Shown in pieces: positions 29,501 through 49,684 of a stretch of DNA of 64,000 nt. How positions within the stretch are numbered: position 1 is the first letter of the stretch; every line of letters begins with the position of its first letter. Under the pieces are notes generated by a model, which was not told the origin of the DNA, did not search any database, and was given only the letters and a program-made list of their open reading frames with translations. A program made the position numbers and the translations under genes. The stretch comes from a virus. Its lineage: Duplodnaviria; Caudoviricetes. The stretch lies in IMG/VR virus record IMGVR_UViG_3300002092_001784, positions 192,001 through 256,000 of that record. One strand, given 5' to 3'.

Positions 29501-32500
29501 CAATTACTTCTGCAAACTTCACAGGAAGTTCTGGTACAAACGCATCTATGATTGTTACGGCATCTATGTACGATACCACAACTTTAACTACCTATTCGGA
29601 TTATATGACCGTTGCTTTGGTTACGGAAGGTAGTGATGCTATTACAGCAGTACTTTCAAACGAAGCAGTTGCATTTGCATCCGATATAAACGGTACTATT
29701 TCTCCTGCAAATTATGCTGGCAGTGGTACGAAAATATATGTATATCAGGGAGCAACTCAATTAGATTATACCGGCTCATCACCTACTGCAAGTTCATGGA
29801 CTACGGTAGCTACTGTAAATGGTATAAATTCGCCAGTTATCACCGATGGTGGAACTTTTGCGGTTATAGCTGATTATACATCTATGACTTCTGATGCAGC
29901 AAGCGCTTCATTTGCAATAACCGGTTACGGACAAAATGGAAGTAGTTTCTCACCAATTACAAAAATTCAATCTTTTGTAAAGGCAAAATCGGGAACGAAT
30001 GGTACGGCAGGTAGTAGTGGTACTGCTGGTTTATCGGGTAGAGTTTTAAGATTGGCATCCCCATCCCAAGTCTTTACCAAATTAAAGACCGGTGCAATTA
30101 CACCAACCTCAATAACATTAACTGCTAATACACAAAACATAGCAGGTACAAATAGTCCTTCGGGTTTGGCGGGAAAGACTCTGACATTGACGTCTGGAAC
30201 AGTACCTCAGATATTTACTAAAACGGGTACAACACTTTCACCAACACAAATGGTTCTCACCGCAAATCCGCAAAATATAGTAAGTGCGTCTGGTACTTTT
30301 GTAACATTCACAACTTCATCGGTTGGTTCGGCTGGGCCGTTAACTATTGTAGGAAACGTAGCAACACTACCATCGGCATCAATGGGGGCTAATACATATA
30401 TGGGTATTACTGCTTCAATGTATGATATTACAACGGGCGCAACTTATTCGGATTACATAACAGTGCCTGTTGTTGTCAGTAGTGCTACTACAATTACACC
30501 AGTACTTACAAATGAATACCATTTAGTTCCTGTTGATAATAATGGTGGTGTTATAAGTTTGGCAGGTAGTGGTACATCAATATATGTGTATCAGGGTGCA
30601 ACGGCATTAACATATGTTACGGGCCCAACCACTGCAAATGGACAATGGACTATGACAGCAGTTGCAAACGGTGTATCTTCACCCGTTATTGGTGGAAGTG
30701 GTACTACTTTCGCTACAATTGGTCAGTATTCATCAATGACAGCAAATACCGCTACTGTTACCTTTACAATATCAGGAAAACAATCTGGAGGTACAGCATT
30801 TGGTCCGATTACAAAAACACAAACACTTCTACAAGTAAAATCGGATATATCGGATGTTGCCACATTCACATTTTCTTCAATTACACCTGCCGGTCCGTTG
30901 AATATTATTGGAAACAATGCAACAATTACTTCCGCAAATTTCACAGGAAGTGCCGGTAATAATACTGCTATGGTTGTGACTGCTTCAATTTATGATACGG
31001 CTACCAATTCCAACTATTACGATTATATGACCGTTGCTTTGGTTAATGAAGGTACAGATGGTATTACGGCAGTACTTTCAAACGAAGCACAAACATTCGC
31101 ATCTGATATAAACGGTAATGTACTTGCCTCTAGTTTTGTTGGGAGTGGTACGAACATTTATGTATATCAGGGAGCAACACAGTTACAATATACTGGTTCA
31201 TCACCTACCGCAAGTTCATGGACTGTAGTAGCTACTCCAACCGGCATGAGTACTCCATCGATTACAGATGGTGGAACTTTTGCGGTTGTGGCTGATTATA
31301 CATCTATGACATCAACAGCAGATTCTGCTAGTGTTTCATTTGCAATAACCGGATATGGTCAGAATGGAAGTAGTTTTTCACCGATTACAAAAATACAATC
31401 ATTTACAAAAGCAAGGTCTGGTACGAACGGAACGGCAGGAACAGCAGGAACGGCAGGTGCAAATGCAGTTGTTATAACGATGACACCACCTGCACAAAGT
31501 GTACCATACAGTAGTAGTTATGGTACTCCAGTCACAGTACAAGTATCAGTTGTGGAAAACGGAACGGCATATACACCAACTACTGCAAATCCACTAACTG
31601 TAAATTCAACATATAGAATTACCGCAGTAAGTGGGTGTACTGTTAATGCGGTAACTGGTGTAGTAACACCAACAACACCATCTGCATTGACAGGAACTAC
31701 TGCTGTTTTTTCTGTTCAATACAGAGATAGTAAAGGTATTATTTCCGGAACAATTAACCAAACACATATTGTTACCGTAGTTCCTAGTGGTGATCCGGGA
31801 CCGGGTGTTGTTTATAGGGGTGCATATGTATCTACGGTTGTATATTATTACACACCGACCCGTAGAGATGTTGTTTCATATGGTGGGGTATATTATTTGG
31901 CAAATAATACAGCTAAAAGTGGTACTAACGGTTGGGCAACTCCAACTGGTACGGGTGATTGGGCTAATTTTGGTGCAACGTTTACATCTGTTGCTACTGA
32001 TATTCTTTTTGCACAAGATGTATATGCAAATCGAACAATTAATATTGGGGCAAGTGGTGCAACTCCAGTAATTGCATTAAATTCCGATAATGCTGGTGCT
32101 GGCGCAAACCCATCTATTAGAATTAGTAATAGCGGATACAATACAACTGGGATTTTCATAGGATATGATTTAACTGTTCCAAAGTTATCATTAAAGAGTG
32201 CTGGTGGTAGCTACTTAACATGGGATAATTCTTCTTTAACCATAAGTGGTAGTATAACTGCTACAAATGGTACGGTTGGGGGTTGGACAATTGGTTCAAC
32301 TGCATTACAATCACCGGCCGTAAGTCCTAAAGCAGTACTAACCGCAGGTTCTACACCATCATTATCATTAGGACAATCAACTATTGGATATGGTAATGTT
32401 GGTGTGTTTTTAGGTTATACTGGAACTATTGCACAATTATCATTATCTGGTTCAACTGGAGGATTGACATGGGATGGTACATCATTAGCTATCACTGGGA

Positions 32501-34356: not shown

Positions 34357-36531
34357 ATGCGCAAACAAAAGTTACTTTACGTTGCACCTCATTTATCTAC
34401 GGGTGGACTTCCACAATATCTTTATAAACAAATAACACATTTTAGTGATGAATTTGAAATCGAAGTTGTGGAAGTCCATAATATGGGCGGTGAGGTATTT
34501 GTAGTTCAAAAGAACCGAATACGAAATACCGTTCCACTTCACACTCTTGGTGAAAACAAATCTGAAATATTGGATATTATAACTCAGTTTCAACCCGATG
34601 TTATACATTTTCAAGAAATACCCGAATATGATATTGCTACTAATATTTTGGATACTATTTTCTCAAAAAATAGAAAGTATTTCATTATAGTAACCACACA
34701 TGGTTCTAATACCAATCCAGAAACAATATCATACCACCCGGACAAATACGTTTTAGCATCCGAATGGAGTAGACGACGGTTTGAAATAACTGGAGTGCCA
34801 ACCGATGTATGGGAGTATCCAATATATGATATTCGTACTGAAATTGGACTGACCAAAGAAGAAGCACAACGGAAATTAGAATTAGACCCGACATGGAAGC
34901 ATGTACTTAATGTTGGATTATTCACACAAGGTAAAAATCAGGCAGAGATATTTGCTATGGCTAGGCAGTTGGAAAAATATAAAATAAAATTCCACTTTGT
35001 TGGCAATCAGGCGGGTAATTTTGAATCATATTGGAAACCTCTAATGGATTATAAGCCAGATAATTGTGTTGTGTGGGGTGAACGAACTGATACTGATACA
35101 TTTTATGCGGCATGTGATTTGTTTTACTTTAGTTCTAAATTGGAATTGAATCCGTTATCGGTTAAGGAAGCGCTTTCATTTGATATGCCATGCCTTTTCC
35201 GCAAATTAGAAACTTATTTGGACAGCTATGATAATAATGAACTTGTCACATATATAACAGATGATGTAAACATAACCAAACGAATCCTATTGGAAAAACT
35301 ACAACCGGAATTAAATGAAGTTGTTGGGTGGTTTTCATATGATTATCTATATGATAGTATGGTTAATTCTGTCAAAACTCCAGTTGAATTTGTTGAGGTT
35401 GGTGCATGGCTGGGTAAATCTACAAACTATATGGCAACTCGCATTAGGGAATCGGGAAAACCAATTCATTTTACAACAGTTGATACTTGGAAAGGTACGG
35501 ATGATGAAGAACTACATCAGAATATAGTAAATACGTTTAACGGTGATATTTTTTATGAATTTATTGATAACACAGTTATATCTAAAAACTACGGAACATT
35601 TGATTGTATAAAAGATACATCGGAGAACGCTTCAAAACTGTTTGCAAATAATTCGATTGATTTTATTATGTTGGATGCTGGTCATTCATATGAATCGGTT
35701 AGAGATGATTTGAAATATTGGTATCGTAAAGTTAAACCCGGAGGAATTATTTCTGGAGATGATTATCGTATTATGTTTGAGGGAGTAACTAGGGCAGCCG
35801 ATGAATACTTTTACGGACAAGTTGAACATTCAAACCTTCAATTTGTTAGAAAAAAACCAAAGATTCAAATTTTACACCTATTGACCAGACCCGATGATAT
35901 GAGGGAGAGGGTTAGTATTGCTTCGTTAAAACAGTTGGAACAGTACGGTATGAAATATACTCAAATGGTTAATACACCTTATGATGGGTTGCCGCCAAAA
36001 GAACATTGTTCGAGACCCGATGCAATAAGTGATACTCCTAGGTACTTAGGAAACGGATTTGGAACTATAACTGGTAGACACTATGGCTGTTATCTTGCTC
36101 ATAGGGGAGCGTTAGAAGCAATGAGTGATGAGTATGATTATACTCTTATATTTGAAGCAGATGCTTTCATTTATACCGGTCTGGAAGAATTTGTGGATAT
36201 TGTACATAAAGCCTGTTTCATATCTGAACGGGATAATGTACCTTATATCGGTTTGGCGAATAATCCATCGTGGAATAAATGGGAAGTTGATGGATTGTTT
36301 AGTAAAACAGATTACAATCAGGATTTAGCACACTGTTACCTAATACCAAATCGTGAAAAAGATTGGTGGATGGACAGAATTGAAGATATTCCTTGGGATG
36401 TGGCTGATTTATGGTATAATAATGTTTTTCTTAACAGACCACGTCCTCGTTATACTACAAATAAAATGTATAGTAAACAGGCAGAGGGATTTTCACTTTT
36501 AGATCAAACAGTTAAAACTTGGAATGAATGA
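34357..36531 (+). CDS. Three-domain protein: GT-B (GT4-like) glycosyltransferase, class I SAM methyltransferase, GT25-like glycosyltransferase
   Basis: LYVAPHLSTGG, LNVGLFTQGKNQ, ELNPLSVKEAL; VEVGAWLGKS, LDAGHSYE...VKPGGIISGDDY; HYGCYLAH...LIFEADA. Confidence 0.72.
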   Translation: MRKQKLLYVAPHLSTGGLPQYLYKQITHFSDEFEIEVVEVHNMGGEVFVVQKNRIRNTVPLHTLGENKSEILDIITQFQPDVIHFQEIPEYDIATNILDTIFSKNRKYFIIVTTHGSNTNPETISYHPDKYVLASEWSRRRFEITGVPTDVWEYPIYDIRTEIGLTKEEAQRKLELDPTWKHVLNVGLFTQGKNQAEIFAMARQLEKYKIKFHFVGNQAGNFESYWKPLMDYKPDNCVVWGERTDTDTFYAACDLFYFSSKLELNPLSVKEALSFDMPCLFRKLETYLDSYDNNELVTYITDDVNITKRILLEKLQPELNEVVGWFSYDYLYDSMVNSVKTPVEFVEVGAWLGKSTNYMATRIRESGKPIHFTTVDTWKGTDDEELHQNIVNTFNGDIFYEFIDNTVISKNYGTFDCIKDTSENASKLFANNSIDFIMLDAGHSYESVRDDLKYWYRKVKPGGIISGDDYRIMFEGVTRAADEYFYGQVEHSNLQFVRKKPKIQILHLLTRPDDMRERVSIASLKQLEQYGMKYTQMVNTPYDGLPPKEHCSRPDAISDTPRYLGNGFGTITGRHYGCYLAHRGALEAMSDEYDYTLIFEADAFIYTGLEEFVDIVHKACFISERDNVPYIGLANNPSWNKWEVDGLFSKTDYNQDLAHCYLIPNREKDWWMDRIEDIPWDVADLWYNNVFLNRPRPRYTTNKMYSKQAEGFSLLDQTVKTWNE

Positions 36532-37685
36532 GTATTTACGATAACTTAAAAAAGAATAATAATAATATAGTTCAAGTTACAAAAGTAAACGATGCAACTA
36601 TTCATTTTGTGAAAGGACCTTTTGTAGAAATTACAGGCCCAAAGCAAGCCGATTATCGAATTGATTTTATTGATAATAATACGGGTAATATATTATATAG
36701 CGGAACGCAGAGTAATAATATGTGGTCTAAATGTAATATTGAATATTTTGTAGATTGGAAGATTGTAATTTATGAAAATGGTGTATTATGGAAAGAATAC
36801 CATTATGATGTAAACGGTAAGCATGTTTATATTGCATTGGATTCAAAAGCATTGGGTGATACGTTGGGCTGGTTTCCAATGGCTGATGAATTTAGAAAAA
36901 AACATAATTGCCGTTTAAGTGTATCCACATTCAACAATAAATTGTTTAGGGGTCAATACCCCGATATTAAATTTGTAGAACCGGGAGAAGTTGTAGATAA
37001 TATTTACGCAATGTATACATTGGGATTGTTTTACAATGAAGATGGCTCGTTGAATATGTTTATGCACCCTAATAATCCACGTGAACAACCAATGCAGAAA
37101 ATGGCATCTGATATATTGGGATTAGAATATAAAGAGGTTCGTCCAAAGTTAAGAACTCGTCCAATCAATATAGATAAAGATTCTAAGCAGATTACGGTAG
37201 GTTTATTTGGAACGGCTCAAGCCAAATTTTGGAATAATCCAAACGGATGGCAAGAAGTTGTGGATTGGTTAAAGGGTAGAGGGTATACTGTTAGGGTATT
37301 ATCCAAAGAACCTGATAACTATATGGGAAATCGAATACCAAAAGGTGTAATTCAACAGGGTGAAGCTCCATTGGTTGATTTAATGGATGAAATGCGGCAA
37401 TCTAAAGCATTTATTGGAATCGGTAGTGGGTTGAGTTGGTTGAGTTGGGCATTGAATGTACCAACTGTTCTGATTAGTGGGTTTTCATACGATTGGGCTG
37501 AAATGCAAGATTGTATAAGAATATCAGCACCAGCTGGAAAATGCCAAGGTTGTTTTAATCGGTTGAGATTGGATGCCGGTGATTGGCATTGGTGTCCCGA
37601 TCATAAAGATACGCCAAAACATTACGAGTGTACAAAAACCATAACAAGCGATATGGTTATAAAAGAATTGGAAAAATTTCTATAA
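36528..37685 (+). CDS. Aah/TibC-like O-heptosyltransferase (GT-B, Cys-rich C-terminus)
   Basis: SKALGDTLGWFP...FRKKHNC, AKFWNNPNGWQEVVDWL, FIGIGSGLSWLSWA, C..C...WCP...ECTK..ITSDMV. Confidence 0.72.
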   Translation: MSIYDNLKKNNNNIVQVTKVNDATIHFVKGPFVEITGPKQADYRIDFIDNNTGNILYSGTQSNNMWSKCNIEYFVDWKIVIYENGVLWKEYHYDVNGKHVYIALDSKALGDTLGWFPMADEFRKKHNCRLSVSTFNNKLFRGQYPDIKFVEPGEVVDNIYAMYTLGLFYNEDGSLNMFMHPNNPREQPMQKMASDILGLEYKEVRPKLRTRPINIDKDSKQITVGLFGTAQAKFWNNPNGWQEVVDWLKGRGYTVRVLSKEPDNYMGNRIPKGVIQQGEAPLVDLMDEMRQSKAFIGIGSGLSWLSWALNVPTVLISGFSYDWAEMQDCIRISAPAGKCQGCFNRLRLDAGDWHWCPDHKDTPKHYECTKTITSDMVIKELEKFL

Positions 37686-37686
37686 T

Positions 37687-38094
37687 ATGAAAGTGTGGAT
37701 GAATGGTTGTTTTGATGTGTTAGGGCATGGACATTTCAAATTGATAAATCATGCAGCATCAATCGGAAATGAAGTTGTAATTGGTATTGATACGGATAGA
37801 CGAGTAAAAATTCTAAAAGATGATACTCGTCCATACCATACAGCAGAAGAACGAAAGTTCAATTTATTATCAATACGAGGTGTTGATAGGGTAATCATAT
37901 TCGATTCTGCTGAAGAATTGGCAGAACTTATAAAAACCGAAGCACCTGATATTTTTTTAATAGGCGAAGATTATATTGGAAAACCGATAGTAGGTGCCGA
38001 ATACGCCAAAGAAATACATTATTTTCCTAGGCAAGAACGATTGAGTACAACAAAAATTTTACAAAATGGAAAAGAAAATATTAGTAATTGGTGA
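37687..38094 (+). CDS. HldE/RfaE domain II-like sugar-phosphate nucleotidyltransferase
   Basis: NGCFDVLGHGH, IGIDTD.RV...K...RP...ER, GEDY, LSTTKI; neighbours favour ADP-heptose over TagD. Confidence 0.72.
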   Translation: MKVWMNGCFDVLGHGHFKLINHAASIGNEVVIGIDTDRRVKILKDDTRPYHTAEERKFNLLSIRGVDRVIIFDSAEELAELIKTEAPDIFLIGEDYIGKPIVGAEYAKEIHYFPRQERLSTTKILQNGKENISNW

Positions 38095-38812
38095 ATCATG
38101 TACGGATGTATTTGTGTATGGTAGTTCAATCCGAAAATCACCTGAAGGTAAAGGACCAGTATTAGTTCCAACTTCAGAAGTTTATTATTCGGGTATGGCG
38201 GCAAATACCTATAATAATCTATTGGCATTGGGAATGGATGCTGCATTATTTTCTCAAAATTCAGAAATTATAAAAACAAGATATATTGATGATGCGAGTG
38301 GTGAATTGTATCTACGAATAGATGAATATGATTCGACAAATCCAATTCAAATGGAATATTTGCCTGATTTGTCCCAATATGATGCCATCGTTATTTCTGA
38401 TTACAATAAAGGATTTTTAACAGAACAAAATATACAAACAATCGCATCTAAACACCCATTGGTAATATTGGATACAAAAAAACAACTAGGTGCTTGGTGT
38501 AAAGATGTTAAATTCATTAAATTGAATAGAACGGAAAGTGAAAAAAACTTACAAACTATTTTAAGTTATAATTGGTTGCGTGAGAAGGTGATAAGTACAT
38601 TGGATAAGGATGGGGCATCATATATGAATAGATTGGTTACCGCAAAACCAGTAGATGTAGTAGATATATCGGGCGCAGGAGATACTTTTGTTGCTGGGTT
38701 TATTAAAGAATACTTAGAATCCAACGATGTATTCAAATCAATCGAATTTGCTAATGAATGTGCGGCAATAGTAATTGCTCAAAGAGGTATTACTACCATA
38801 CAAAAGGATTAA
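38066..38812 (+). CDS. HldE/RfaE domain I-like PfkB-family heptose kinase
   Basis: ILVIGESCTDVFVYG...SPE...PV, GMAANT..NL, ISDYNKG, DISGAGDTFVA. Confidence 0.78.
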   Translation: MEKKILVIGESCTDVFVYGSSIRKSPEGKGPVLVPTSEVYYSGMAANTYNNLLALGMDAALFSQNSEIIKTRYIDDASGELYLRIDEYDSTNPIQMEYLPDLSQYDAIVISDYNKGFLTEQNIQTIASKHPLVILDTKKQLGAWCKDVKFIKLNRTESEKNLQTILSYNWLREKVISTLDKDGASYMNRLVTAKPVDVVDISGAGDTFVAGFIKEYLESNDVFKSIEFANECAAIVIAQRGITTIQKD

Positions 38813-38826
38813 AATACTATTCTGAT

Positions 38827-38835
38827 ATATTTATA
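38827..38835 (+). promoter_or_regulatory. Putative late promoter of the polyprotein
   Basis: ATATTTATA 23 nt before ATG 38859. Confidence 0.6.
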
Positions 38836-38858: not shown

Positions 38859-41800
38859 ATGAATGAGCTTGTAAAACATTTAGTTGAAACTATAATTTCG
38901 GAAGAAACTGAAAAAAATTATATTGTTGTATATTCCGGTAGATTTCAACCATTTCACAAAGGACATTATGCTACTTACTTAAATCTTACCAAAAAATTTG
39001 GAAAAGATAAAGTTTACATTGCTACGTCTAATGTAACTGATAATAAAAAATCACCTTTTAATTTTGCAGAAAAAAAGGTTATAATGACTAGAATGTTCGA
39101 TATTCCATCGGACAAAATAGTACAGATTAGAAACCCATATGCACCTACTGAAATATTAAATAAATATGATCCAGAAAAGACAGGTGTTATTTTTGTTGTT
39201 GGTGAAAAGGATACTGCTAGACTTGGTGGTAAATATTTCACACCATATAAGGGTACGGTTGATGCTGGATATAAAGATAAAGGATATGTATATGCTTCAC
39301 CTGCACAACCAAACGCAATAAGTGGTACTGATGTTCGTAATTGGTTAGGTAACGGTACGGATGAAGAAAAGAGAGCCAATTTTCTGAAAGCATATCCAAA
39401 ATTCGATGAGAAGATTTTCAAATTAATAACACTCAAGTTGAAAAAATTGGGTGAATCTATACGTGAGGAAATCAAAATCAATGTAAATGTTGGCGATACG
39501 GTGTTAATGGGAAAATTCAAAAACCATCCGGTTAAAGTTAAATCAATCGGTAAGGATGAACATGGTATGCCAACCATTAATGGAAAGAAAGCCGCTACAT
39601 TCAGAATAGGTAATCATATAAATATATTTGATACTGCGGTCAATGAAGATGGTGCGGGCGCCGGAGGTGCTGCCGGGTTTGGAGGACAAGGTGGTGGAGC
39701 TGGTGTTGGGTTATCTTTACCCGGTGGATATATAAACGGAGCACCAAATCCAAAGGATGTTAAAAAGACAAGAAAGAAATTAAAACAAAAAGATGATGAT
39801 ATTTACACACCAGTAAATGAAGCATCTCTTGCTGGATATTATGCTGATAGCGGAGAACCAAATCCTAATTATGTAGCTGATGGACAAGAACGTATTTTAG
39901 ATAAAGGAAAGCCAGAACCTTGGTTTACACAAGGAGGGTATACTCAATTACATATTCCAAAAGGTGATTGGATGAGAGGTAAGGCATTAAAAGATCGTGA
40001 AGATGATATGCAACTTCGTAAGGTATACTACAAAGTTCAAAATATTAAACAAAGTGCATTAAATCCGGCAGATGATCCACATACTACCGAAGATTGGCAA
40101 GTTGTTAATAGGGATACTCCGTTGGAAAAACCAAAAAGATTTTGGGAATTACCAAAAAATCAAAAGCCTGAAATAATAGATGATAAAGAAATTACTGAAA
40201 TATTCAATCAGACCCTAAAAGAATTGGGATTGTTGGAATTTAGTGGTGGGCACTCGTTTCCACATGATGGTAACGCAACAACAGGTCGTCAATGGAACAA
40301 ATCATGGGAAGAATATGATAATCCGGATGCATATATTAAACACCTAATGGGATGGTCTACTAAAGATGCCATACCAAGCGATAGGTTTAAGGATATTAAA
40401 CATCAAGAAATTCCATTAAATCAATCCGGACAGGAAACAGGAATATACGATCATACATTGGATTACAATATACTTGCTCCAAATGAATTTTTAGAAAAAT
40501 CTGAAATTCAAAAGGGTGTGGTGAACGATGCTTCAGATGAAATGCATCGTCCTTTACATAATGGAATGGAATGGCCATCTATGGATGATATTAAAGCCAA
40601 ACGAAAAAAAATAAAATCAAAACTTCGAAGTCCTAAAAATTCGTATTTGAGTGTGGATGCTCCAATCGTAGGTGAAACCGATTCCGAAGCATTAGATGAA
40701 ATGGCAATGCCAGATATGAAATCGGTAGAAAAATACGCAGATCAACAGTTGAGTCCGGAAGATGTTGAATTAGGAAAGCAAACTGACCATTTTTTCCAAC
40801 GATTAAATGATCCACGAAACGGAAAACCAATTTCGACAGCAGAAATGATAGGTTTCTTTAAGAGGTTGGGTAACAACAAAGAGAAATTTTTAGATTTTGT
40901 AAAGAAATATAGTGAATTTGTTGTAAAGGATAATAGAACAAATATCAATATCGCCTTTATGAAGCAGGCTAATAAACTTATTGCCAAAACGGTGATGAGA
41001 AAGCCTGATTTTAAGACAAGCAATCCAATATTTGTAGATGAAGCTGAACAATTGGATGAATTGGCATGGTCTACTAGTGCATTTAATTTTGTGCAAGATG
41101 TTGATGTACCATTTACACCAAAAGTTGCAAAAGCACTCTATGGTGATATGATAGTTACTACATTTCATGTTAGCGATTCTGATAATATTGATAATATTAA
41201 AAAGTTAATCGGTAAGAAAAAATCAGTGTCAACATTTACATATATGGCGCGAACCGCTTTGCAGAATATGGATGGTATACAAACCGACGGTGGTATAATA
41301 TATCAATTAGTTGGTAAGGTTTTAATAGATTCTGCGAATGATATTATGAGTAGACCTGATGAACAGGGTAGACGGTGGGTAATGGGACGAGATTTGAATC
41401 CAGTTACCTATAAATTGTATCAGAAATTTTATAAGTATATGGGTTCTAAGAAAGAACTTCAAAAATACGATGAAAAATATGAATCAACTTATGATGCAGA
41501 CACTGACTCTAGTTCATTAACCAATAAAGAAAAATCTGAATGGATAGCAGCATACATTCGATTGGCTGAAGAGTGGATTATTCAGCACGCCGATGAATTT
41601 AGGGATACTATGCGTAAGATGCCAATGGATGAATATTGGAATGAAGTAGTGGTATACGATATACACATTAAAGATGTATTGTGGACAAACTCTGGGCAGT
41701 TTGGGACGGCTGACGAAGATGAATTGAATGAAATAAGTCATAAATTAAATACAATCGCAACCGGAACTGTTTATTACACCGATGAACCTTCAGATGCATT

Positions 41801-42326
41801 GAAATTTGTAAAATCAAGAGGTGGACAATATGCCAAAGCAAATATCGGATTACCATATAAAGGTGTGCCGGTTGGCAGTACAAATATTAATAGTATATTA
41901 AGTGCCGACGCATTTAACATGAAAGAATCGGTTCAACCAATTAGTATCAACGAAGCAACCGAAGCATTGAAGATGCACATACCATCGGATATTGAGCAAA
42001 TATATAAAATGTTTCAAAAAAATGGTAAGAAATTGTATATTGTTGGTGGTGCTGTTAGGGATGCTATTTTGGGAAAGACACCAAAAGATTTTGATTTAGC
42101 AACCGATGCTACTCCTGATGAAGTTTTAGCTATGGCTAAAAAGGAAGGTATGCATTCGACAGAAGTTGGAAAAGCATTTGGTGTGGTGATTGTTAATGGT
42201 AATGAAATAGCAACTTTCAGGAAAGATGTGAAATTAAAAGATAATGCAGATGATTTTATAAAATATTTACAATATATTAATATACCGAATACTCGTATAT
42301 CTACTTTCAAAAAAGAATTGAATTAG
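38859..42326 (+). CDS. Multidomain polyprotein, part A: NadM/cytidylyltransferase-like, SH3-like, BECR-like, ART-like module 1, N-terminal half of CCA-adding enzyme
   Basis: SGRFQPFHKGH and ISGTDVR; HFFQRLNDPRN...KTVMRK; LAW...TFHVSD...KSVSTF...WNEVVV; YIVGGAVRDAILGKTPKDFDLATDA...EIATFRKD. Confidence 0.75.
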   Translation: MNELVKHLVETIISEETEKNYIVVYSGRFQPFHKGHYATYLNLTKKFGKDKVYIATSNVTDNKKSPFNFAEKKVIMTRMFDIPSDKIVQIRNPYAPTEILNKYDPEKTGVIFVVGEKDTARLGGKYFTPYKGTVDAGYKDKGYVYASPAQPNAISGTDVRNWLGNGTDEEKRANFLKAYPKFDEKIFKLITLKLKKLGESIREEIKINVNVGDTVLMGKFKNHPVKVKSIGKDEHGMPTINGKKAATFRIGNHINIFDTAVNEDGAGAGGAAGFGGQGGGAGVGLSLPGGYINGAPNPKDVKKTRKKLKQKDDDIYTPVNEASLAGYYADSGEPNPNYVADGQERILDKGKPEPWFTQGGYTQLHIPKGDWMRGKALKDREDDMQLRKVYYKVQNIKQSALNPADDPHTTEDWQVVNRDTPLEKPKRFWELPKNQKPEIIDDKEITEIFNQTLKELGLLEFSGGHSFPHDGNATTGRQWNKSWEEYDNPDAYIKHLMGWSTKDAIPSDRFKDIKHQEIPLNQSGQETGIYDHTLDYNILAPNEFLEKSEIQKGVVNDASDEMHRPLHNGMEWPSMDDIKAKRKKIKSKLRSPKNSYLSVDAPIVGETDSEALDEMAMPDMKSVEKYADQQLSPEDVELGKQTDHFFQRLNDPRNGKPISTAEMIGFFKRLGNNKEKFLDFVKKYSEFVVKDNRTNINIAFMKQANKLIAKTVMRKPDFKTSNPIFVDEAEQLDELAWSTSAFNFVQDVDVPFTPKVAKALYGDMIVTTFHVSDSDNIDNIKKLIGKKKSVSTFTYMARTALQNMDGIQTDGGIIYQLVGKVLIDSANDIMSRPDEQGRRWVMGRDLNPVTYKLYQKFYKYMGSKKELQKYDEKYESTYDADTDSSSLTNKEKSEWIAAYIRLAEEWIIQHADEFRDTMRKMPMDEYWNEVVVYDIHIKDVLWTNSGQFGTADEDELNEISHKLNTIATGTVYYTDEPSDALKFVKSRGGQYAKANIGLPYKGVPVGSTNINSILSADAFNMKESVQPISINEATEALKMHIPSDIEQIYKMFQKNGKKLYIVGGAVRDAILGKTPKDFDLATDATPDEVLAMAKKEGMHSTEVGKAFGVVIVNGNEIATFRKDVKLKDNADDFIKYLQYINIPNTRISTFKKELN

Positions 42327-42352
42327 CCACATTTCGTTTATTTTATTAATTA

Positions 42353-42361
42353 ATATTTATA
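42353..42361 (+). promoter_or_regulatory. Putative late promoter of inserted endonuclease (and downstream polyprotein part B)
   Basis: ATATTTATA-TGT-ATG, identical context to 13665. Confidence 0.6.
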
Positions 42362-42364
42362 TGT

Positions 42365-43117
42365 ATGATTATATACAAAGTAACAAATAAAATAAATAAA
42401 AAGATATATATTGGACAAACTATACGTTCAATGACGGAACGTAAATATGGACATATAAAATCTGTTAGAATGGGAAGTACTTCGTTGTTTCATAATTCTA
42501 TTAGAAAATATGGAATTGATAATTTTACATGGGAAGTAATAGACACGGCACATTGTATAGAAAAGTTAAATGAATTAGAAATTAGTTATATTGCAAAATT
42601 TAATTGTTTTATTGATTTTCAAAATAGTAATGGGTATAATATGAATACTGGTGGTGGTAATTATATAACATCACATTTAACTAAACAAAAACTTAGTATT
42701 ATAAATACCGGTAAAATTTTATCAACCGAAACTAAAGAGAAAATCAGTAAAGGTAACCTTGGAAAATCAGTAACCGAATCATTTCGAAAAACTATGAGTG
42801 AGTTAAATAAAGGTAGAGTTGCTAGTTTGGAAACTAGAGAAAAAATAAGTAAATCTTTGCAAGGCAAGCCGGGTAGAAATACCGGTAATACGCATACTCA
42901 AGAAACTAAAGAAAAAATATCGAATACAAAAAAAGGAACGGTTTCTTGGAATGCATCGCCAGTTATACAACTAACGATGGACGGCGAATTTGTTAGAGAA
43001 TGGCGAAGCGCAGCATTTGCCGCATCCCAATTAAAGTTAAGTCAAGGCAATATAACATCATGTATACATGGTAAACGAAACAGTACTGGTAACTACAAAT
43101 GGATTAAAAAAATATGA
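42365..43117 (+). mobile_element. Free-standing GIY-YIG homing endonuclease inserted within the CCA-adding domain
   Basis: IIYKVTN...IYIGQT...NGYNMNTGG; NUMOD3 repeats; C-terminal PVIQL...SAA...GNYKW; stop overlaps the next start (ATGA). Confidence 0.85.
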
Positions 43118-46100
43118 AAAATTGGAAAGAAATTGCTAAGCAGTATTTTGCGGATGAATATATTGATTTTCAAAAATTAATAAGTGGTACTGGTGCAAAT
43201 ATAAACGTTAAACGGGGGGCTCAGATTGTAGATTATACGGATATTGAGGGTGATGTCAAACGACGTGACTTGACAATTAATGCGTTATTTTATGATATTG
43301 ATAGAGGTGAAATCGTAGATTTAGTTGGTGGTATAGCAGATTTACATAAAAAGAAAATACGAACCGTTGGTAACGCAACTGAAAGATTTGATGAAGACCC
43401 TCTTCGGAAATTAAGAGCGTTGAGATTTTACAGTCAACTGGGTGGTAATATGGATGTTGAAACTCTTAAAGCATTAAAAGATAACCCATCATTGGAAGGT
43501 GTAAGTGCGGAAAGGATTCGTGACGAATTTATAAAAACACTTAATAAAGCAAAATCCGAAAAGAGATACCTTCAAATGCTGCAAGCTCTTAAATTCTTAA
43601 ATCAAATTCTACCCGATTTGGTGGTGGCTAAACCGTATGTAGATGAAAATGATTACATTGTATTACTTGCGTATTTGCTTAGAGAAAATGATACTCAAAC
43701 TCTAATACGTCAACTAAATAAGTTGAAGTATACAAACGATGAATGTAAAGATATAACTTTTTTGGTATCGCTACAATCATTCACCGCAGATAAAATTGCC
43801 AATTACAAAAAAAACCAATCTGTTACTACATTAAGTGATAATCAAATATTGGAATTTGGGAAATTGATCGGAAAGAACTTCAATAAATTTGTGAAATTTC
43901 AATTAGCTATAAAAGGTTCAGATGTACCTGCTGGATTAAAAGGTAAAGATATTGGAAATTGGATGGGTGATGCTGAATCAAAACGATTTTTGAATGAAGC
44001 AGTAGTGATTAAAAATTTCAAAGATATATTCAGTAAATTACCAACTGAAGTTCAGAAAAAAATATATTCACTAAAAGATGCACCGCAAAACCCAAAACAT
44101 CATCCGGAAGGTAATACATTAAAGCACACTATTATGGTGGTGAATCGTGCATTGAAGTATTTTCCGAATGATATTGATTTAATAATAGCAGCAATATTTC
44201 ACGATATAGGTAAAGCTGATACGATGAGTATTCATCCAAAGACCGGTGGTATAACTCATTATGGGCATGAAGATGTATCTACCGAATGGGTTAACCGATA
44301 TAGTAATTGGATTGAATCTATGGGTGGAAACGCTGAAGATGTACGATATATTGTACAGAACCATATGAAAATGCATAATTTTGATATAATGCGATTGGCA
44401 AAACAACGTGCATTACAATCGCATCCTGCATTTGATAAATTATATGGATTTTCCCAAAAAATGGATAAGGGTGGATTCGGTGAGGGAATACATGAGGGAG
44501 TAAGTGAGGGTATAAATAATCCAAAAATTACATTTCTAATCGGACCTCCTGCTTCTGGAAAAAGTACTTGGGTTAGTAATAACTCAAAAGGTGCTATTAT
44601 CATTTCACGTGACGATATTGTAGACCGTTTAAGAAAACCATTGGGATTATCGTATGGTGAGGCATTTAGTAATGATGAGTTACAAAATAAAGTTAATTCT
44701 GAGCTACAATCCCATATTACACAGACACTTACTTCTGGCAAGGATATAGTTGTGGATATGACTAATATGACCAAAAAAGGTAGACATAAAATATTATCAA
44801 GAGTACCAAAAAACTATACAAAAAATGCGGTAGTGTTTAGTGTTGGTCGTGATGAATTACTTAAACGATTAAAATCAAGGGAAGAAGAAACTGGGAAAAC
44901 TGTACCTGTTTCGGTTGTAGACCAAATGATTAGGAATTTTCAGAAGCCAGATACCGGAGAATTTGATAACATTACAAATGAGGGAATAACTGAGGGTGTA
45001 ATCAATGAATTGGCTTGGCAAGGCAAAGCAATGGATCGGATACAGGAATTGGGATTCCCATTGACACCTAAAATTGGTAAGGAAGTATATGGTGATACAG
45101 TTGTTACTACATTTCATGTAAGCGATGTAAACCATATTGATGATATTAAAAAAATAATCGGTAAAAAGAAATCCATATCAACATTCAAATATATGAATGA
45201 TATGATGCTGAAAAATATGGATGGCATTAGAACCGTCGGTGGTATTATTTATGAATTGCGAGGAAATATAGTAGCAGATTCAACCAAAGATATAGGTAGT
45301 GCCCCAGATGAACAAGGACGTAGATGGGTGATGCTATATTCATCGGCACCGGGTATATATAAATTTACATATGGGTTCAAACAGAAATTAAAATCCAATC
45401 CAATAACAGGTCCTATTTTTGAGTATTTTTGGAAAAATGGTATAATGCCGGAAATGGATAATACTAATAAAGCAAAATTCATAGCAGCATATATTTCTAC
45501 GGCAGAAAAATACATAATTGAAAATCAAGATGATTGGGTACAACTATTGCTTTCACCGCAAACTAATAATGCTTGGAATGAAGTATTGGTAAATAATATA
45601 CAAGTTAATGATATAATTTGGACAAATAAATTTTATCAATATAGTAAAGAACAATTAGCTGAATATTCTAAAAAATTAGAAGTAATTGCAAAGGGTAAAG
45701 TATATTTTACAATGGATTCAAAAGATACCATTGAATTTGTTAAATCACGCGGTGGCTTTACTGGTAATATTAATGCCACACCAAAAGAATATATGGGAGC
45801 GGCAGTTGGAAGTGAAGATGCAATGAAATTTATGAAAGAAGAAGTGCTGAATGAATTGGCTTGGGAGGCTGGTGTTAATAAATTTATAACACAAATGAAT
45901 TTTCCGTTTACACCAAAAGTTGGGAAAGCATTATATGGTGACGCGGTTGCTACTACATTTCATATAACAGATGCTGACAACTTTTCTAAAATAAAATCTC
46001 TTATCGGCAAAAAGAAATCCATTTCTTCGTTTACCTTTATGGGTGATGATATGTTAGATGATATAAGGGGAATACAGACCGTAGGTGGTATTTTATTTCA

Positions 46101-47997
46101 ATTAGAAGCAAAAATAGTACTAGATTCCGCGGTAGATGCGATGAGTCAACCGGATACAGAAGGTAGACGTTGGTCAATCGAACCAACAACATTGAGAAAA
46201 CAATTCAAACAGGAAATATATGATGATGCCAAGTTTTATAAACGATTTAATTTATATTGGGCTGGCGGAAAGGCAATGACTCAAAGTGAAAAGGGTAAGT
46301 TTGTAGCGGATTATATCACACGAGCTGAAAAGTTTTTAATTAAAAATAAAAATAAAGTTATAAAAGAGTTAAGATCGCATGGGTTGGTGGGTGATTGGAA
46401 TGAAGTTATTGTATATGATATAAAGGTAAAGGATGTATTATGGACAAATACTTCCAATAATTATTATACCGATAGAATACGACATAGTGATGCTGAAATA
46501 AAGCGTATTGCTAGTGAACTAAAACAAATAGCAACTGGTACTGTATATTTTACTGAAAATCCTAAAGATGCTATTGAATTTGTGAAAAGTAGAGGTGGTT
46601 TTGTTGGTGGCAGTGGCTGGGACTCTACTGGTGAATATAAAGGAGCTGCTGTTGGCAGTACAAATCCAAAAATTATTATGAAAGAAGGAAATATGAAAAC
46701 TATAATGGAAGGCTTGAGTAAAAAAGATTTACTAATCGAAGAACTGATGGTTCAAAGACAATACGGATTACTTGCTAATAACCAAAAGGTATTACTACAA
46801 TGTGGTGGGGCCTACGGACATATGCATCACCCATTTGATACCGAAATCAATCTTACATTTGGGGATTTGAAAGATATAGTAAAGAAAGCGTTAACTGGTG
46901 AATTGGAACTTACTCGTGAAAAAACAGATGGTCAGGCTCTCGCAATTAGTTGGGTAGACGGTAGATTGGTTGCTGCTCGTAATAAATCACATCTTAAAAA
47001 CAAAGGAAAGGATGCAATGACTTTACAAGCCGTTGCTGATAAATTTGGTGGGCGTGGTGGATTATCCGATGCATACAATTTTGCAATGCAAGACCTTTCA
47101 AATGCAATTAGTGCATTATCAGAAGCACAAAGACAACTTATATTCAAAGATGGGACATGTTTTATGAATTTGGAAGTAATATATCCAACTTCGGTAAATG
47201 TAATACCATACAATCAGGCACTATTGGTATTTCATGGAACATTTGAATACGACGAGAGTGGAAACATAATTGGTGAAAATCAACCCGCAGCTCGTGTATT
47301 GGCAGGTATGATTAAGCAGGTAAACCAGAATGTTCAAACGAAATACAAAATACAAGGACCACCGGTTATTCAATTACCAAAATCGGCAGATTTGACAGAC
47401 CTTCAATCAAAATATTTGGCAATGGTTTCAAAATTACAATCAGAATTTGGATTATCAGATTCAGATGGTGTTGCTGATTATCATCAGGCATGGTGGAGGT
47501 ATTACATCGATGTTAACGCACATTCATTGCCGGAAGAACAAAAGAAAGCACTAACAAAAAGATGGGCATTTTACGATAAATCATTTAGGTTGAAGGATAT
47601 TCAAGATGATACAGTTAGAGCTTGGGCTGAAAAAATAGATAAGCAAGATCAAGCAAAAATTGCGAAAGATAATCTAATGAGGTTTGAACAGATATTTTTA
47701 GGAGTGGGTTCAGATGTACTTTCATTTATGAAATCAGTTCTTACCGCAAATCCTGATGAAGCAAAACGACAGATGGTTAGTAAATTAGATCAAACGATTA
47801 AAGATGTAAAAAACAGTGGTGATCCGAAAAAGATAGAAAAACTAAAATTAGAATTACAGAGATTACAATCGGTAGGTGGGTTTGATAAAATTGTACCAAT
47901 CGAAGGTATTGTTTTTGTATATAAAGGTAACGTAATGAAGCTAACAGGCGCTTTTGCTGCATGCAATCAAATTAACGGTATCTTTTTTTCAAAATAG
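43114..47997 (+). CDS. Multidomain polyprotein, part B: C-terminal half of CCA-adding enzyme, HD domain, PNK-like kinase, ART-like modules 2 and 3, ATP-dependent ligase-like domain
   Basis: IEGDVKRRDLTINA...RFDEDPLRKLRALRF; HHPEG..LKH...FHDIGKA; GPPASGKST...SRDD...DMTN; two LAW modules; EKTDG...ARNK...NLEVI...EGIVF...MKLTG. Confidence 0.78.
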   Translation: MKNWKEIAKQYFADEYIDFQKLISGTGANINVKRGAQIVDYTDIEGDVKRRDLTINALFYDIDRGEIVDLVGGIADLHKKKIRTVGNATERFDEDPLRKLRALRFYSQLGGNMDVETLKALKDNPSLEGVSAERIRDEFIKTLNKAKSEKRYLQMLQALKFLNQILPDLVVAKPYVDENDYIVLLAYLLRENDTQTLIRQLNKLKYTNDECKDITFLVSLQSFTADKIANYKKNQSVTTLSDNQILEFGKLIGKNFNKFVKFQLAIKGSDVPAGLKGKDIGNWMGDAESKRFLNEAVVIKNFKDIFSKLPTEVQKKIYSLKDAPQNPKHHPEGNTLKHTIMVVNRALKYFPNDIDLIIAAIFHDIGKADTMSIHPKTGGITHYGHEDVSTEWVNRYSNWIESMGGNAEDVRYIVQNHMKMHNFDIMRLAKQRALQSHPAFDKLYGFSQKMDKGGFGEGIHEGVSEGINNPKITFLIGPPASGKSTWVSNNSKGAIIISRDDIVDRLRKPLGLSYGEAFSNDELQNKVNSELQSHITQTLTSGKDIVVDMTNMTKKGRHKILSRVPKNYTKNAVVFSVGRDELLKRLKSREEETGKTVPVSVVDQMIRNFQKPDTGEFDNITNEGITEGVINELAWQGKAMDRIQELGFPLTPKIGKEVYGDTVVTTFHVSDVNHIDDIKKIIGKKKSISTFKYMNDMMLKNMDGIRTVGGIIYELRGNIVADSTKDIGSAPDEQGRRWVMLYSSAPGIYKFTYGFKQKLKSNPITGPIFEYFWKNGIMPEMDNTNKAKFIAAYISTAEKYIIENQDDWVQLLLSPQTNNAWNEVLVNNIQVNDIIWTNKFYQYSKEQLAEYSKKLEVIAKGKVYFTMDSKDTIEFVKSRGGFTGNINATPKEYMGAAVGSEDAMKFMKEEVLNELAWEAGVNKFITQMNFPFTPKVGKALYGDAVATTFHITDADNFSKIKSLIGKKKSISSFTFMGDDMLDDIRGIQTVGGILFQLEAKIVLDSAVDAMSQPDTEGRRWSIEPTTLRKQFKQEIYDDAKFYKRFNLYWAGGKAMTQSEKGKFVADYITRAEKFLIKNKNKVIKELRSHGLVGDWNEVIVYDIKVKDVLWTNTSNNYYTDRIRHSDAEIKRIASELKQIATGTVYFTENPKDAIEFVKSRGGFVGGSGWDSTGEYKGAAVGSTNPKIIMKEGNMKTIMEGLSKKDLLIEELMVQRQYGLLANNQKVLLQCGGAYGHMHHPFDTEINLTFGDLKDIVKKALTGELELTREKTDGQALAISWVDGRLVAARNKSHLKNKGKDAMTLQAVADKFGGRGGLSDAYNFAMQDLSNAISALSEAQRQLIFKDGTCFMNLEVIYPTSVNVIPYNQALLVFHGTFEYDESGNIIGENQPAARVLAGMIKQVNQNVQTKYKIQGPPVIQLPKSADLTDLQSKYLAMVSKLQSEFGLSDSDGVADYHQAWWRYYIDVNAHSLPEEQKKALTKRWAFYDKSFRLKDIQDDTVRAWAEKIDKQDQAKIAKDNLMRFEQIFLGVGSDVLSFMKSVLTANPDEAKRQMVSKLDQTIKDVKNSGDPKKIEKLKLELQRLQSVGGFDKIVPIEGIVFVYKGNVMKLTGAFAACNQINGIFFSK

Positions 47998-48061: not shown

Positions 48062-48904
48062 ATGATTATATATAAAGCTACAAACAAAGTAAGTGGTAAG
48101 TGCTATATTGGGCAAACTGTTAAGACTTTAGAAAATAGAATATATCATCACATTTCTAATTCTAAATCTGCAATACATAAAAGTATTTTTCACAATGCTT
48201 TGAAATCTTATGGTTCTGATAATTTTGAATGGGAAGTTATAGCAACGGCCGATACAAAAGAACAACTTAATGAATTGGAAATATACTATATAACAAAATA
48301 TGATAGTATAAATACCGGTTATAATATGGTTGAAGGTGGGACTGGTGGTTACAACCAATTTGCGGTAGATGCAAACAAATTAAAAAGAGCAGGTAAAACT
48401 TGGAATGAAATATATTCAGATACGGGGTTGGCTGTTATGAAAAATGCATTATCTACTTTTACTAAAGCTGGGGTTGAATATATTAAAAATTTACCAAAAG
48501 AACAAAGAATTATTAATGCAAAACGAGCTAACAAAGCCAGAACTGATATGGGATATAAACATAGTGATGCAACAAAAGATAAAATGAGTAAAGCTCAAAA
48601 AGGTATAACCAATACAGACCGATATGGTGAAGATGCTGCCAGCGAACTAAAAAAGAAAATATCCGAAGCAACTAAAGAAGCTATGAAAAAAGTGGACAGG
48701 GATTTAATCGGAAGAAAATCAGTTGAAGCTCGTACACCATTTTGGAATAAAAAACACGAAAATGATAGAAATGTGATATTAGAGATGACAAAACTGGGTA
48801 GTAAAATTAAAGATATAATGTTTGCTATAAATGTATCACCACCGACTTATTATAAACGAGTTAATGAATTGAAAAATATGGGATACTCCAATTTGTTTGA
48901 ATAA
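48062..48904 (+). mobile_element. Free-standing GIY-YIG homing endonuclease with C-terminal HTH-like segment
   Basis: IIYKATN...CYIGQT...GYNMVEGG; GYKHSDATKDKMS; IKDIMFAINVSPPTYYKRV; followed by a terminator. Confidence 0.82.
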
Positions 48905-49003: not shown

Positions 49004-49684
49004 ATGACAAAAGAATTTAATAAAGGTTATATGCATCCAACTCGTAGAAAACTTGTGGATATGGTTCTATCCGGCGGAGAATACGATGGTGATGCTACAT
49101 TTGGGTACAGAGATATTCAACAGGAAGTTAAACATGCTGTTGGCGAACGGTGGACTGATTCTGATGGAAAGAAATGGAAGCAAACAGATGGTGGTAGAGT
49201 TGCGGACTCCGAATTAAGTGATATTATGGCAGATGCTCGTGCATATTTAGGTAAAATGAAATCATGCGCATCTAAAGATTGTAAAACTATAAAATTAGGC
49301 AGAGTAGATAAGAAATTGGTAGCAAAAACTGGATATTGTTTACATTGCCTTACAATAAAAGAAGCACAGATAAGATATGATGGGTTATGGGAGGTATATG
49401 CGGATTATAAGATATATTCAAATATGGTTGGGCACGGTAGAGATGTTTTGGCAAATCTAAACCAATCATTAAAGGATGTTAAACAAACATACGAATATGT
49501 AAATGCCGATGGTAAGTTAGAAACTTGGACTATGGATAGAGATGCTAATGAATTAAGAGCAGAAATTCTAATAGATATAACCAATGTTGAAAGAGAACTT
49601 GATGAGGTAATAGAATTACGAAATACGGCATGGGACAAACTTAAAGATAAAGGTTACGATTTAGTAAAAGCACCAACTGACTGA
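49004..49684 (+). CDS. Conserved hypothetical protein upstream of TerL (candidate small terminase)
   Basis: Position 2 nt before TerL, CxxxxC...CxxC, C-terminal coiled coil; function inferred from position only. Confidence 0.45.
   Translation: MTKEFNKGYMHPTRRKLVDMVLSGGEYDGDATFGYRDIQQEVKHAVGERWTDSDGKKWKQTDGGRVADSELSDIMADARAYLGKMKSCASKDCKTIKLGRVDKKLVAKTGYCLHCLTIKEAQIRYDGLWEVYADYKIYSNMVGHGRDVLANLNQSLKDVKQTYEYVNADGKLETWTMDRDANELRAEILIDITNVERELDEVIELRNTAWDKLKDKGYDLVKAPTD

Follow-up and report, generated by a model that had tools for sequence, protein, structure and literature searches.

The 64,000-nucleotide stretch of viral DNA analyzed here as a whole (the window; positions 192,001 to 256,000 of the IMG/VR record IMGVR_UViG_3300002092_001784, Caudoviricetes) carries at 38859-47997 three plus-strand open reading frames (ORFs), the outer two of which encode a series of enzyme modules with candidate prohead protease sites at their junctions, a series that we interpret as a probable capsid cargo polyprotein. 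P0001 (38859-42326, 1155 aa) encodes polypeptide A and P0003 (43114-47997, 1627 aa) encodes polypeptide B. Between them lies P0002 (42365-43117, 250 aa), a free-standing GIY-YIG/NUMOD3 homing endonuclease gene by its Pfam and PHROG 314 matches, which is not part of the cargo. A first-pass annotation had described a single gene of about 2780 aa; that figure is the sum of the two outer ORFs.

A CCA-adding gene in pieces

The endonuclease gene splits the head domain of a CCA-adding enzyme, with Pfam PolyA_pol positions 1-76 ending P0001 and positions 79-126 beginning P0003. In three unsplit relatives (loci L029, L032, and L063), the CCA domain is contiguous and reads EIATFRKDI-GKG-RRPKAVDF in the alignment; in the window, FRKDV and GTG are separated by a 31-aa tail with its stop, 38 nt, the endonuclease ORF, and a new head of 24 aa. 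The N-terminal part of the head domain, with its new tail and stop, occupies 41955-42326, and the new head of polypeptide B (MKNWKEIAKQYFADEYIDFQKLIS; 43114-43185) is not present in the unsplit relatives. Only the 38 nt separate the stop of P0001 from the endonuclease start, the endonuclease stop overlaps the P0003 start as ATGA, and the endonuclease gene has its own TATTTATA motif 3 nt upstream. A group I intron around the endonuclease was rejected as unsupported, with no Rfam match in the window at gathering thresholds or in 41900-43500 at E ≤ 10. An intein was also rejected, as the junctions are without the Cys/Ser ... HN signature and the Pfam Intein_splicing match is noise (E 0.13). The lack of an Rfam intron at E ≤ 10 and the ATGA overlap lead us to conclude, on sequence grounds, that a free-standing homing endonuclease has left the CCA gene in pieces, a divergent group I intron being an unlikely alternative. 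The arrangement resembles known genes in pieces of this origin, such as nrdA of Aeh1, split by mobE: an intron-less GIY-YIG gene sits within a conserved domain, both parts remain open, and translation of the second begins again at an ATGA overlap. In contrast to nrdA, the split module here is a CCA-adding enzyme within a polyprotein, and its new tail and head are predicted to zip together.

Complex prediction for the two CCA halves gave an ipSAE of 0.72 (best control, 0.06). This passes a mark attained by 51 of the 78 solved complexes and by 2 of the 108 mismatched pairs; three runs share at least 88% of contacts, and partner predicted local distance difference test (pLDDT) values are at least 83. 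The halves are thus predicted to re-associate, with the proviso that they derive from one fold, which the model may have remembered. The new tail of polypeptide A (42229-42326) contacts the new head of polypeptide B (43114-43185) in the model, for example at B15-A1137 and B19-A1136, and the two segments, both created by the endonuclease insertion, are predicted to act like a compensating zipper.

A second GIY-YIG homing endonuclease gene, a free-standing paralogue of the 42365 gene, lies at 48062-48904 on the plus strand, between the polyprotein and a TerS-like ORF, in a slot that is empty in relatives. This gene and a 226-aa ORF (49004-49684) intervene between the polyprotein and TerL, and the earlier placement of the polyprotein just before TerL is to be amended in this respect.

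Enzyme modules of the two polypeptides

Module boundaries were defined independently of the candidate cleavage sites, from Pfam, PHROGs, and homologue alignments, and at least eight module families were distinguished among the polyproteins. All modules described below are on the plus strand. After its leader, polypeptide A continues with a HIGH-motif nucleotidyltransferase (38904-39455) resembling nicotinamide mononucleotide adenylyltransferases (NMNAT), with a Pfam CTP_transf_like match at E 2.6e-10 and weak NCBIfam NMNAT matches; in Microcystis phage Mel-JY01 and one uncultured huge phage, this module is fused straight to the ligase-like module described below in a protein of about 640 aa. 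It is followed by a small SH3-like module (VGDTVLMGKF...; 39468-39647) preceded by SIRE↓E, where ↓ marks the proposed cut. The SH3-like module is present in 18 related polyproteins, always with a hydrophobic-x-Glu (h-x-E) motif about 7 aa upstream, and in 'type 2' relatives it is N-terminal, after the leader MSNKLTEWLVKPLLE↓. A Gly-rich/PGGYINGAP spacer and about 290 aa with no assigned family, ending in ALDE↓, fill 39648-40700 (partial matches in loci L040, L043, L059, and L067). The 'M2' module follows at 40701-41060 (PHROG 23027/14518; 58% identity to part of Flavobacterium phage immuto gp190) and then, at 41061-41954, the first of three repeats that resemble ADP-ribosyltransferases (ARTs), with a tail and linker ending in MKE↓..SINE↓ and 44% identity to repeat 2.

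Past the split, the other portion of the CCA-adding enzyme (43186-43998, ending in FLNE↓), comprising further head sequence, the neck, and the RNA-binding part, matches Pfam PolyA_pol positions 79-126, PolyA_pol_RNAbd, and the NCBIfam CCA tRNA nucleotidyltransferase model (1.7e-33), such that the PolyA_pol head domain in two parts and the RNA-binding domain together identify a class II CCA-adding enzyme. An HD phosphohydrolase module (43999-44508, ending in IHE↓GVSE↓; Pfam HD 8.5e-6; PHROG 6931; similar to HD-kinase proteins of Campylobacter phages) precedes a P-loop polynucleotide-kinase-like module (44509-45009, ending in ITE↓GVINE↓) supported by Pfam AAA_33 (3.9e-20), PHROG 505 polynucleotide kinase, and a weak NCBIfam bacterial Pnkp match. 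ART-like repeats 2 (45010-45855) and 3 (45856-46686), the latter a paralogue of repeats 1 and 2, are followed by a spacer (46687-46803) whose site map shows three or four sites (MKE↓GNMKTIME↓GLSKKDLLIEE↓) and a degenerate VLLQC junction. The C-terminal RNA-ligase-like module of about 400 aa (GGAYGHMHHPFD..., KTDG, EGIVF, KLTG) spans 46804-47997.

The three repeats share 44-45% pairwise identity, and the invariants of the family are H, K..S, G, D, GRRW, and W.E, with the invariant H, S, and E in the order FHxT ... KKSIS ... WNE. The repeat family has no Pfam or PDB profile match. An AlphaFold2 model of repeat 2 (pLDDT 86; first 10 and last 28 residues at low confidence) gave weak structural matches, of which Tpt1 was the best (Z 4.7), followed by DarT (Z 3.6-3.7) and by CteC and MbcT at E >0.1; an ESM Atlas feature search with the repeat gave no usable match. 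From these models, the repeats are probably, not provenly, members of the ART superfamily. Each of the three is followed, just before the site cluster, by a tail motif, Y-(K/M)-G-(A/V)-(A/P)-V-G-S-(T/E)-(N/D) (plus strand, about 41856-41885, 45790-45819, and 46636-46665), which was found in no relative's polyprotein and could be a docking or spacer element.

The ligase-like module is the most conserved of all (mean column identity, 67%), and KTDG, EGIVF, and KLTG are invariant among 20 ligase-like sequences. It has no sequence-profile match. The top Foldseek matches of its AlphaFold2 model (pLDDT 80) are all RNA ligases, namely, the Trl1 ligase domain, an archaeal RNA ligase (Rnl3), and T4 Rnl1, at weak values (E 0.03-0.4), and VIA-align against Trl1 gave Z 5.7-5.8 across 179-188 residues. 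The module is probably an RNA ligase, an assignment that comes from the model and is not proven. AlphaFold DB searches returned only uncharacterised family members and weak matches. Scans of both ORFs with Pfam, PHROGs, and NCBIfam found no peptidase and no large polyvalent protein domain (LPD) family; a fold match to an 'ART-PolyVal-like' entry was very weak (E 0.28).

Candidate cleavage sites at module junctions

The (L/I/V/M)-x-E sites quoted in the first-pass annotation are all present, and they coincide with the independently defined module boundaries, as had been claimed: ALDE↓MAM (40701), QLDE↓LAW (41061), SINE↓ATE (41955), FLNE↓AVV (43999), IHE-GVSE↓GIN (44497/44509), ITE-GVINE↓LAW (44995/45010), and MKE-EVLNE↓LAW (45841/45856), with IMKE, IME, and LIEE at 46687-46744. 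An overall enrichment of the motif was looked for and is absent, as the total of [LIVM]xE is not unusual (20 and 24 observed versus 16.1 and 22.2 in residue shuffles); only the placement of the sites is non-random. Among non-redundant module starts from the window protein and its IMG/VR relatives, 61 of 69 have a site at most 15 aa upstream, compared with 17% of random positions, and the expected enrichment at inter-module linkers was therefore found. The motif precedes all eight module families irrespective of which module lies upstream, and it is mildly depleted within module cores (49 observed versus 67 expected; z = -2.6). In the AlphaFold2 models of both the repeat and the ligase-like module, the junction sites lie in low-pLDDT linkers or ends.

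Before the ligase-like module, h-x-E directly abuts GGAYGHM in 75 of 77 cases. An initial sample contributed 22 of 24, and a later one all 53 of its distinct upstream contexts, these usually with a further site 5 residues earlier.

Leader peptides and cargo-like arrays

Polypeptide A starts with a leader (MNELVKHLVE↓TIISE↓; 38859-38903, plus strand) that is similar to the capsid targeting sequence (CTS) of T4, with L4, H7, L8, and E10. In T4, targeting depends on CTS positions 4 and 7 and processing on positions 8 and 10, the first 10 residues of internal protein (IP) III suffice for targeting, and propeptides follow a rule of 10-19 aa with L/I-x-E processing residues (PMC9026906). The leader pattern found here, hydrophobic at 4, 7, and 8 with Glu at 10, has its key positions where those of the T4 CTS were mapped. 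Relatives' polyproteins begin with MKGLAKFLVE (L4, F7, L8, E10) or MNELSKYLME.

The same leaders occur on modules that stand alone. Metagenomic stand-alone repeat homologues of about 300 aa start with MIKLKDLLNE, MKSFKGYLKE, or MKLAQLLKE, and in the alignment their leader Glu occupies the column of the junction Glu in internal copies, which retain h-x-E only; a stand-alone M2 (L058:10792) has the leader MIKLKDLLLE↓, and stand-alone ligase-like proteins (L164 and L151) read MIRLHKILNE↓VLLKE↓GGAYGHM. In phiM12 and Melnitz, the homologues of M2 are encoded close to replication genes and have no clear leader, giving no support for M2 packaging in those phages.

Elsewhere in the 266,153-base record to which the window belongs, at 139784-143200 of that record, six consecutive ORFs with no BLAST matches to one another carry such leaders: five start with MIKLKxLLxE or MIKLSGLLNE, and the first starts with MKLKELMNE and has TATTTATA upstream. 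Further leader ORFs lie at 37289, 37517, and 30756-32370 of the record, and 85 of 1984 ORFs in relatives' loci carry the leader, often in tandem arrays. At T4 IP loci, the encoded proteins likewise have only the leader in common (PMC12373910), and the ORFs of the array are probably small capsid-cargo proteins of the phage. A second set of ORFs in the record starts with MKLxExKxIIREE.

Relatives and the head gene cluster

Scanning IMG/VR with an alignment of the repeat yielded 229 relatives, of which about 28 are polyproteins of 1200-2035 aa that contain the same modules in shuffled order, always with the ligase-like module last; the module content that the first-pass annotation had proposed to compare recurs among them. 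A scan with the ligase-like alignment yielded at least 581 contigs, many of which encode the module within polyproteins of shuffled order, invariably beside TerS, TerL, portal, and S77 protease genes. In about 30 related loci, the polyprotein gene immediately precedes the genes for the TerS-like protein, TerL, the portal, and the protease, and in locus L054 a stand-alone repeat gene lies just after the capsid gene. By TerL identity, the closest cultured relatives are Flavobacterium phage immuto (56%) and Mel-JY01 (55%), with T4-like cyanophages at about 30%. No near-identical DNA was found in cultured phages, and tblastn gave no match to the repeat family in them. In immuto (locus L004, MW353176 113144-116487), the slot upstream of TerL holds gp190 and gp191; gp190 begins MKKSQLRQIIKE↓A... 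and carries IEE↓MADM as an internal junction ahead of its M2 module; gp191, of 842 aa, starts MKKLIRIVE↓A.... In Mel-JY01, the protein that fuses the nucleotidyltransferase to the ligase-like module has the leader MGKLINILLSE and the junction IIAE↓GGLGGHM.

The head cluster of the window encodes a prohead protease (57260-57859, plus strand; Pfam Peptidase_S77 at 94.5 bits with a cut-off of 27; PHROG 207), the proposed processing enzyme, together with a T4-type portal (Portal_T4 2.7e-67) and a Gp23-type major capsid protein (62155-63786, plus strand; Pfam Gp23 2.5e-75). The N-terminal propeptide of the capsid protein is rich in h-x-E, the last being QLLDE↓ATQTG, and the match to the Gp23 profile begins at residue 72. 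Other proteins of the cluster begin with MKKQNSYLIME↓G, MKPQLREKLKE↓I, or MASSKLLKE↓A.

Two adjacent paralogous small ORFs in this cluster (58488-58871 and 58874-59407, plus strand) have their first ~18 residues in common, MK(K/T)QNSYLIME↓GSANPKNL, and then diverge; from their sequences, they look like IP-type cargo encoded in the head module. A neighboring 275-aa ORF with no Pfam or PHROG family (59419-60246, plus strand) starts MAKLLNE↓CIIV..., and cleavage following Glu7 would leave Cys at the N terminus, as happens when Ntn hydrolases are activated.

The polyprotein had also been described as lying behind a late motif. On the coding strand the motif reads TATTTATA, which is T4's TATAAATA reverse-complemented. 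It is enriched ahead of ORF starts in the genome, where 30 of its 52 copies lie at a distance of 3-40 nt, and its orientation is reversed relative to the T4 late -10 box. The polyprotein, the two endonuclease genes, the first ORF of the leader array, and three ORFs of the head region are among those with TATTTATA upstream, and the motif is likely a promoter element, judging from its placement. Copies of the form (t)aTATTTATAta occur on the plus strand, for example, at 38828, 42354, 48033, 48974, 51301, and 53589. The T4 late promoter TATAAATA in sense orientation was considered and rejected, as 9 of its 30 copies lie upstream of genes, which is no enrichment.

Proposed mechanism

With moderate confidence, we propose that the two outer ORFs encode a modular cargo polyprotein of a T4-related (Immutovirus-like) jumbo phage, which would be targeted to the prohead, cut by the S77 protease at h-x-E sites in its linkers, and injected as a kit. 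The polyprotein would be made along with the head proteins, and its 10-residue leader would act like the T4 CTS and bring polypeptide A into the scaffolding core of the prohead, with polypeptide B carried along through re-association of the split CCA-domain halves. The gp21-type S77 protease would then cut after the Glu of the h-x-E sites clustered in the flexible linkers, freeing about 10 separate enzymes that would be kept in the head and injected with the DNA. The shuffled order of the modules among relatives is consistent with units that act independently. By analogy with the T4 IPs and Alt, we infer targeting, cleavage, retention, and injection. Strong comparative support for the prohead-protease-processed, packaged polyprotein of the first-pass annotation comes from the h-x-E motif before all module families, the CTS-like leaders, the IP-like array, the synteny with head genes, and the presence of an S77 protease and Gp23; its packaging and cleavage would carry over from T4 by that analogy. 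The further claim that one gene loads a stoichiometric set needs revision, since there are two polypeptides rather than one gene and stoichiometry consequently depends on the predicted re-association of the CCA halves.

The cargo would include a tRNA heal-and-seal kit, made up of the CCA-adding enzyme, the HD phosphoesterase, the polynucleotide kinase, and an Rnl1/Trl1-like RNA ligase, along with an NMNAT-like nucleotidyltransferase and three ART-superfamily-like modules, possibly Tpt1-like 2'-phosphotransferases or Alt-like modifiers. Its likely purpose would be to make tRNA repair and NAD-linked activities available from the first second, ahead of phage gene expression, and a packaged kit of this type would blunt tRNA-cleaving abortive-infection nucleases; the biological target is one that we infer. 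The set that had been called host-takeover and anti-defence enzymes is more narrowly a tRNA heal-and-seal kit with NAD-linked modules, not a generic host-takeover set. More tentatively, and as something we would rate a little below an even chance, an abundant T4-related lineage (at least 581 IMG/VR contigs) may assemble capsid-delivered enzyme cocktails by gene fusion, using a leader and h-x-E linkers, around a core of pre-packaged Trl1/Tpt1-style tRNA ligation with its own NAD supply and a CCA-adding enzyme, which would be the first injected RNA repair to pre-empt tRNA-targeting immunity.

Several points weigh against a packaged and processed polyprotein. The RNA-repair enzymes of T4 are made early, in the cytoplasm, and are not packaged. 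At about 315 kDa per copy, the cargo would be bulky, and polypeptide B is without a canonical leader (W4, I7, A8, Q10). The motif is short and common, with 31% of the genome's ORFs having [LIVM]xE ending at residues 7-20, and the nominal P of 4e-38 for site placement overstates independence, as the counted module instances are related. The window's own ligase-like junction has lost the canonical site (VLLQC↓GG), making it one of the two exceptions noted above, and three or four sites remain 21-40 residues upstream. The ligase and ART assignments draw on weak fold matches (Z <6), and PDB sequence and profile searches with the repeat, the ligase-like module, and residues 180-740 of polypeptide A returned only chance matches. 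The 'late' nature of TATTTATA is that of a candidate. Finally, no virion proteome, N-terminomics, or expression data for the uncultured phage or its cultured relatives (immuto and Mel-JY01) were found in the literature.

Alternative explanations

The alternative that fares best, which we nonetheless consider unlikely, is that the polypeptides form an uncleaved cytoplasmic RNA-repair mega-enzyme of the 'beads-on-a-string' type, comparable to fungal Trl1 or bacterial Pnkp, in which the h-x-E motifs would be inert leader relics or domain N-caps. Relics should decay, yet h-x-E is retained in those 75 of 77 ligase junctions and before all eight families while the linkers otherwise diverge, and the shuffled order speaks against an obligatory architecture. 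Modules that constitute a coherent repair pathway and could gain from tethering, a motif density that matches compositional expectation overall, and the established cytoplasmic location of T4's own repair enzymes would agree with such a mega-enzyme, but the gene is fixed within the head/packaging cluster and the N terminus of the polyprotein itself retains the leader pattern.

Quite improbable, in our judgment, is that the giant protein is packaged and injected with only its N-terminal leader removed and acts whole, like the N4 virion RNA polymerase. Conservation of the internal sites, which is as strong as that of the N-terminal site, and their clustering in disordered linkers argue for internal cuts, as does the free interchange of stand-alone and fused module forms. 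Leader and synteny would favor packaging of an uncut protein as well, and the processing of homologous ejection proteins differs among phiKZ-like phages (PMC5694885). That the leader and h-x-E serve some machinery unrelated to the prohead, perhaps another protease or a pathway that directs proteins to a membrane or intracellular compartment, would agree with an amphipathic leader that could bind other partners but strikes us as very hard to credit in a lineage that encodes an S77 protease, whose capsid, scaffold-like, and small head-module proteins carry the same site type, whose leader key positions are those mapped for the T4 CTS, and whose polyprotein contains no other peptidase domain in Pfam and NCBIfam scans.

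Comparison with known systems

The principles behind a processed cargo polyprotein are known, namely, leader-targeted head cargo, processing by the prohead protease, and multi-effector polypeptides; their proposed combination here as a trans-processed enzyme polyprotein would be new. A literature search found no paper describing packaged RNA-repair enzymes or the ligase-like/repeat polyprotein family. The closest parallels are IPI-III and Alt of T4, with which the present system has in common an S77 protease, an L/I-x-E motif with a cut after Glu (proposed here), a leader of about 10 residues with key positions 4, 7, 8, and 10, and arrays of unrelated cargo genes sharing only that leader. In contrast to the single cargo units of T4, up to about 10 modules are concatenated here, with internal sites and in shuffled order; the leader sequence differs (MIKLKDLLNE), the cargo comprises RNA-repair enzymes that T4 does not package, and the system is known from sequence alone. 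Alt is an ART, as the repeats probably are, and it is cut at both ends and injected (PMC9026906, PMC5694885, PMC12373910), the cuts being at ITE-6 and LTE-619 (PMC5694885). The T4 head also accommodates large cargo, as CTS fusions up to the size of beta-galactosidase are packaged (PMC9026906).

Polyvalent proteins (Iyer et al. 2017, PMC5512222) are similar in being giant multidomain proteins of unrelated conflict-related enzymes, including ARTs (probable ones here), encoded beside virion genes, with predicted delivery along with the DNA and proposed processing into separate units. Those proteins, however, carry an embedded peptidase (a zincin-like MPTase, among others) and typical anchor domains, none of which were found here, where the prohead protease is proposed to do the cutting in trans and an RNA-ligase-like module forms the core. 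RNA-repair modules such as those encoded here were not found in the polyvalent survey, in which 2H domains never occur with RNA ligases and Alt-type ARTs are not in genuine polyvalent proteins (PMC5512222).

In giant phages of the phiKZ/SPN3US type, a gp21-related (S80) protease processes numerous internal head proteins by cleavage after Glu, frequently at more than one position, and the heads package large enzymes, the virion RNA polymerase subunits (PMC5694885). Unlike the polyprotein of the window, these belong to another lineage with an A/S/G-x-E motif and are separate proteins that lose propeptides rather than concatenated enzymes. With the tRNA repair systems of T4 (Pnkp and Rnl1) and of fungi and plants (Trl1 and Tpt1), the polyprotein shares kinase, phosphoesterase, and putative ATP-dependent RNA-ligase-type modules, but its phosphoesterase belongs to the HD family and not to HAD or 2H, its parts all occur in fused form and are apparently virion-bound, and sequence similarity to solved structures was detected for neither the ligase-like nor the repeat family. 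Jumbo phages often encode tRNA-repair sets that include CCA-adding enzymes and KptA-type ARTs (PMC7824862).

If a packaged and processed polyprotein is correct, the T4 'internal protein' principle would extend from small inhibitors to whole enzymatic pathways released by a protease, the polyvalent-protein idea would be tied to a concrete trans-acting protease with a readable cleavage grammar, and phages would be able to counter tRNA-cleaving abortive infection ahead of any gene expression. The leader and h-x-E rule should allow direct prediction of capsid cargo in uncultured T4-like phages and may offer a natural design template for multi-enzyme loading of phage heads, and the ligase-like and repeat modules, two sequence-novel families, become testable enzymes.

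Genes upstream of the polyprotein

An operon on the plus strand upstream of the polyprotein (34357-38812) encodes a glycosyltransferase/methyltransferase fusion, a heptose-type adenylyltransferase, and a PfkB-family sugar kinase. Farther upstream, also on the plus strand, an ORF of 3477 aa (23536-33969) is preceded by TATTTATA and has a G+C content of 0.38-0.41, above that of its surroundings.

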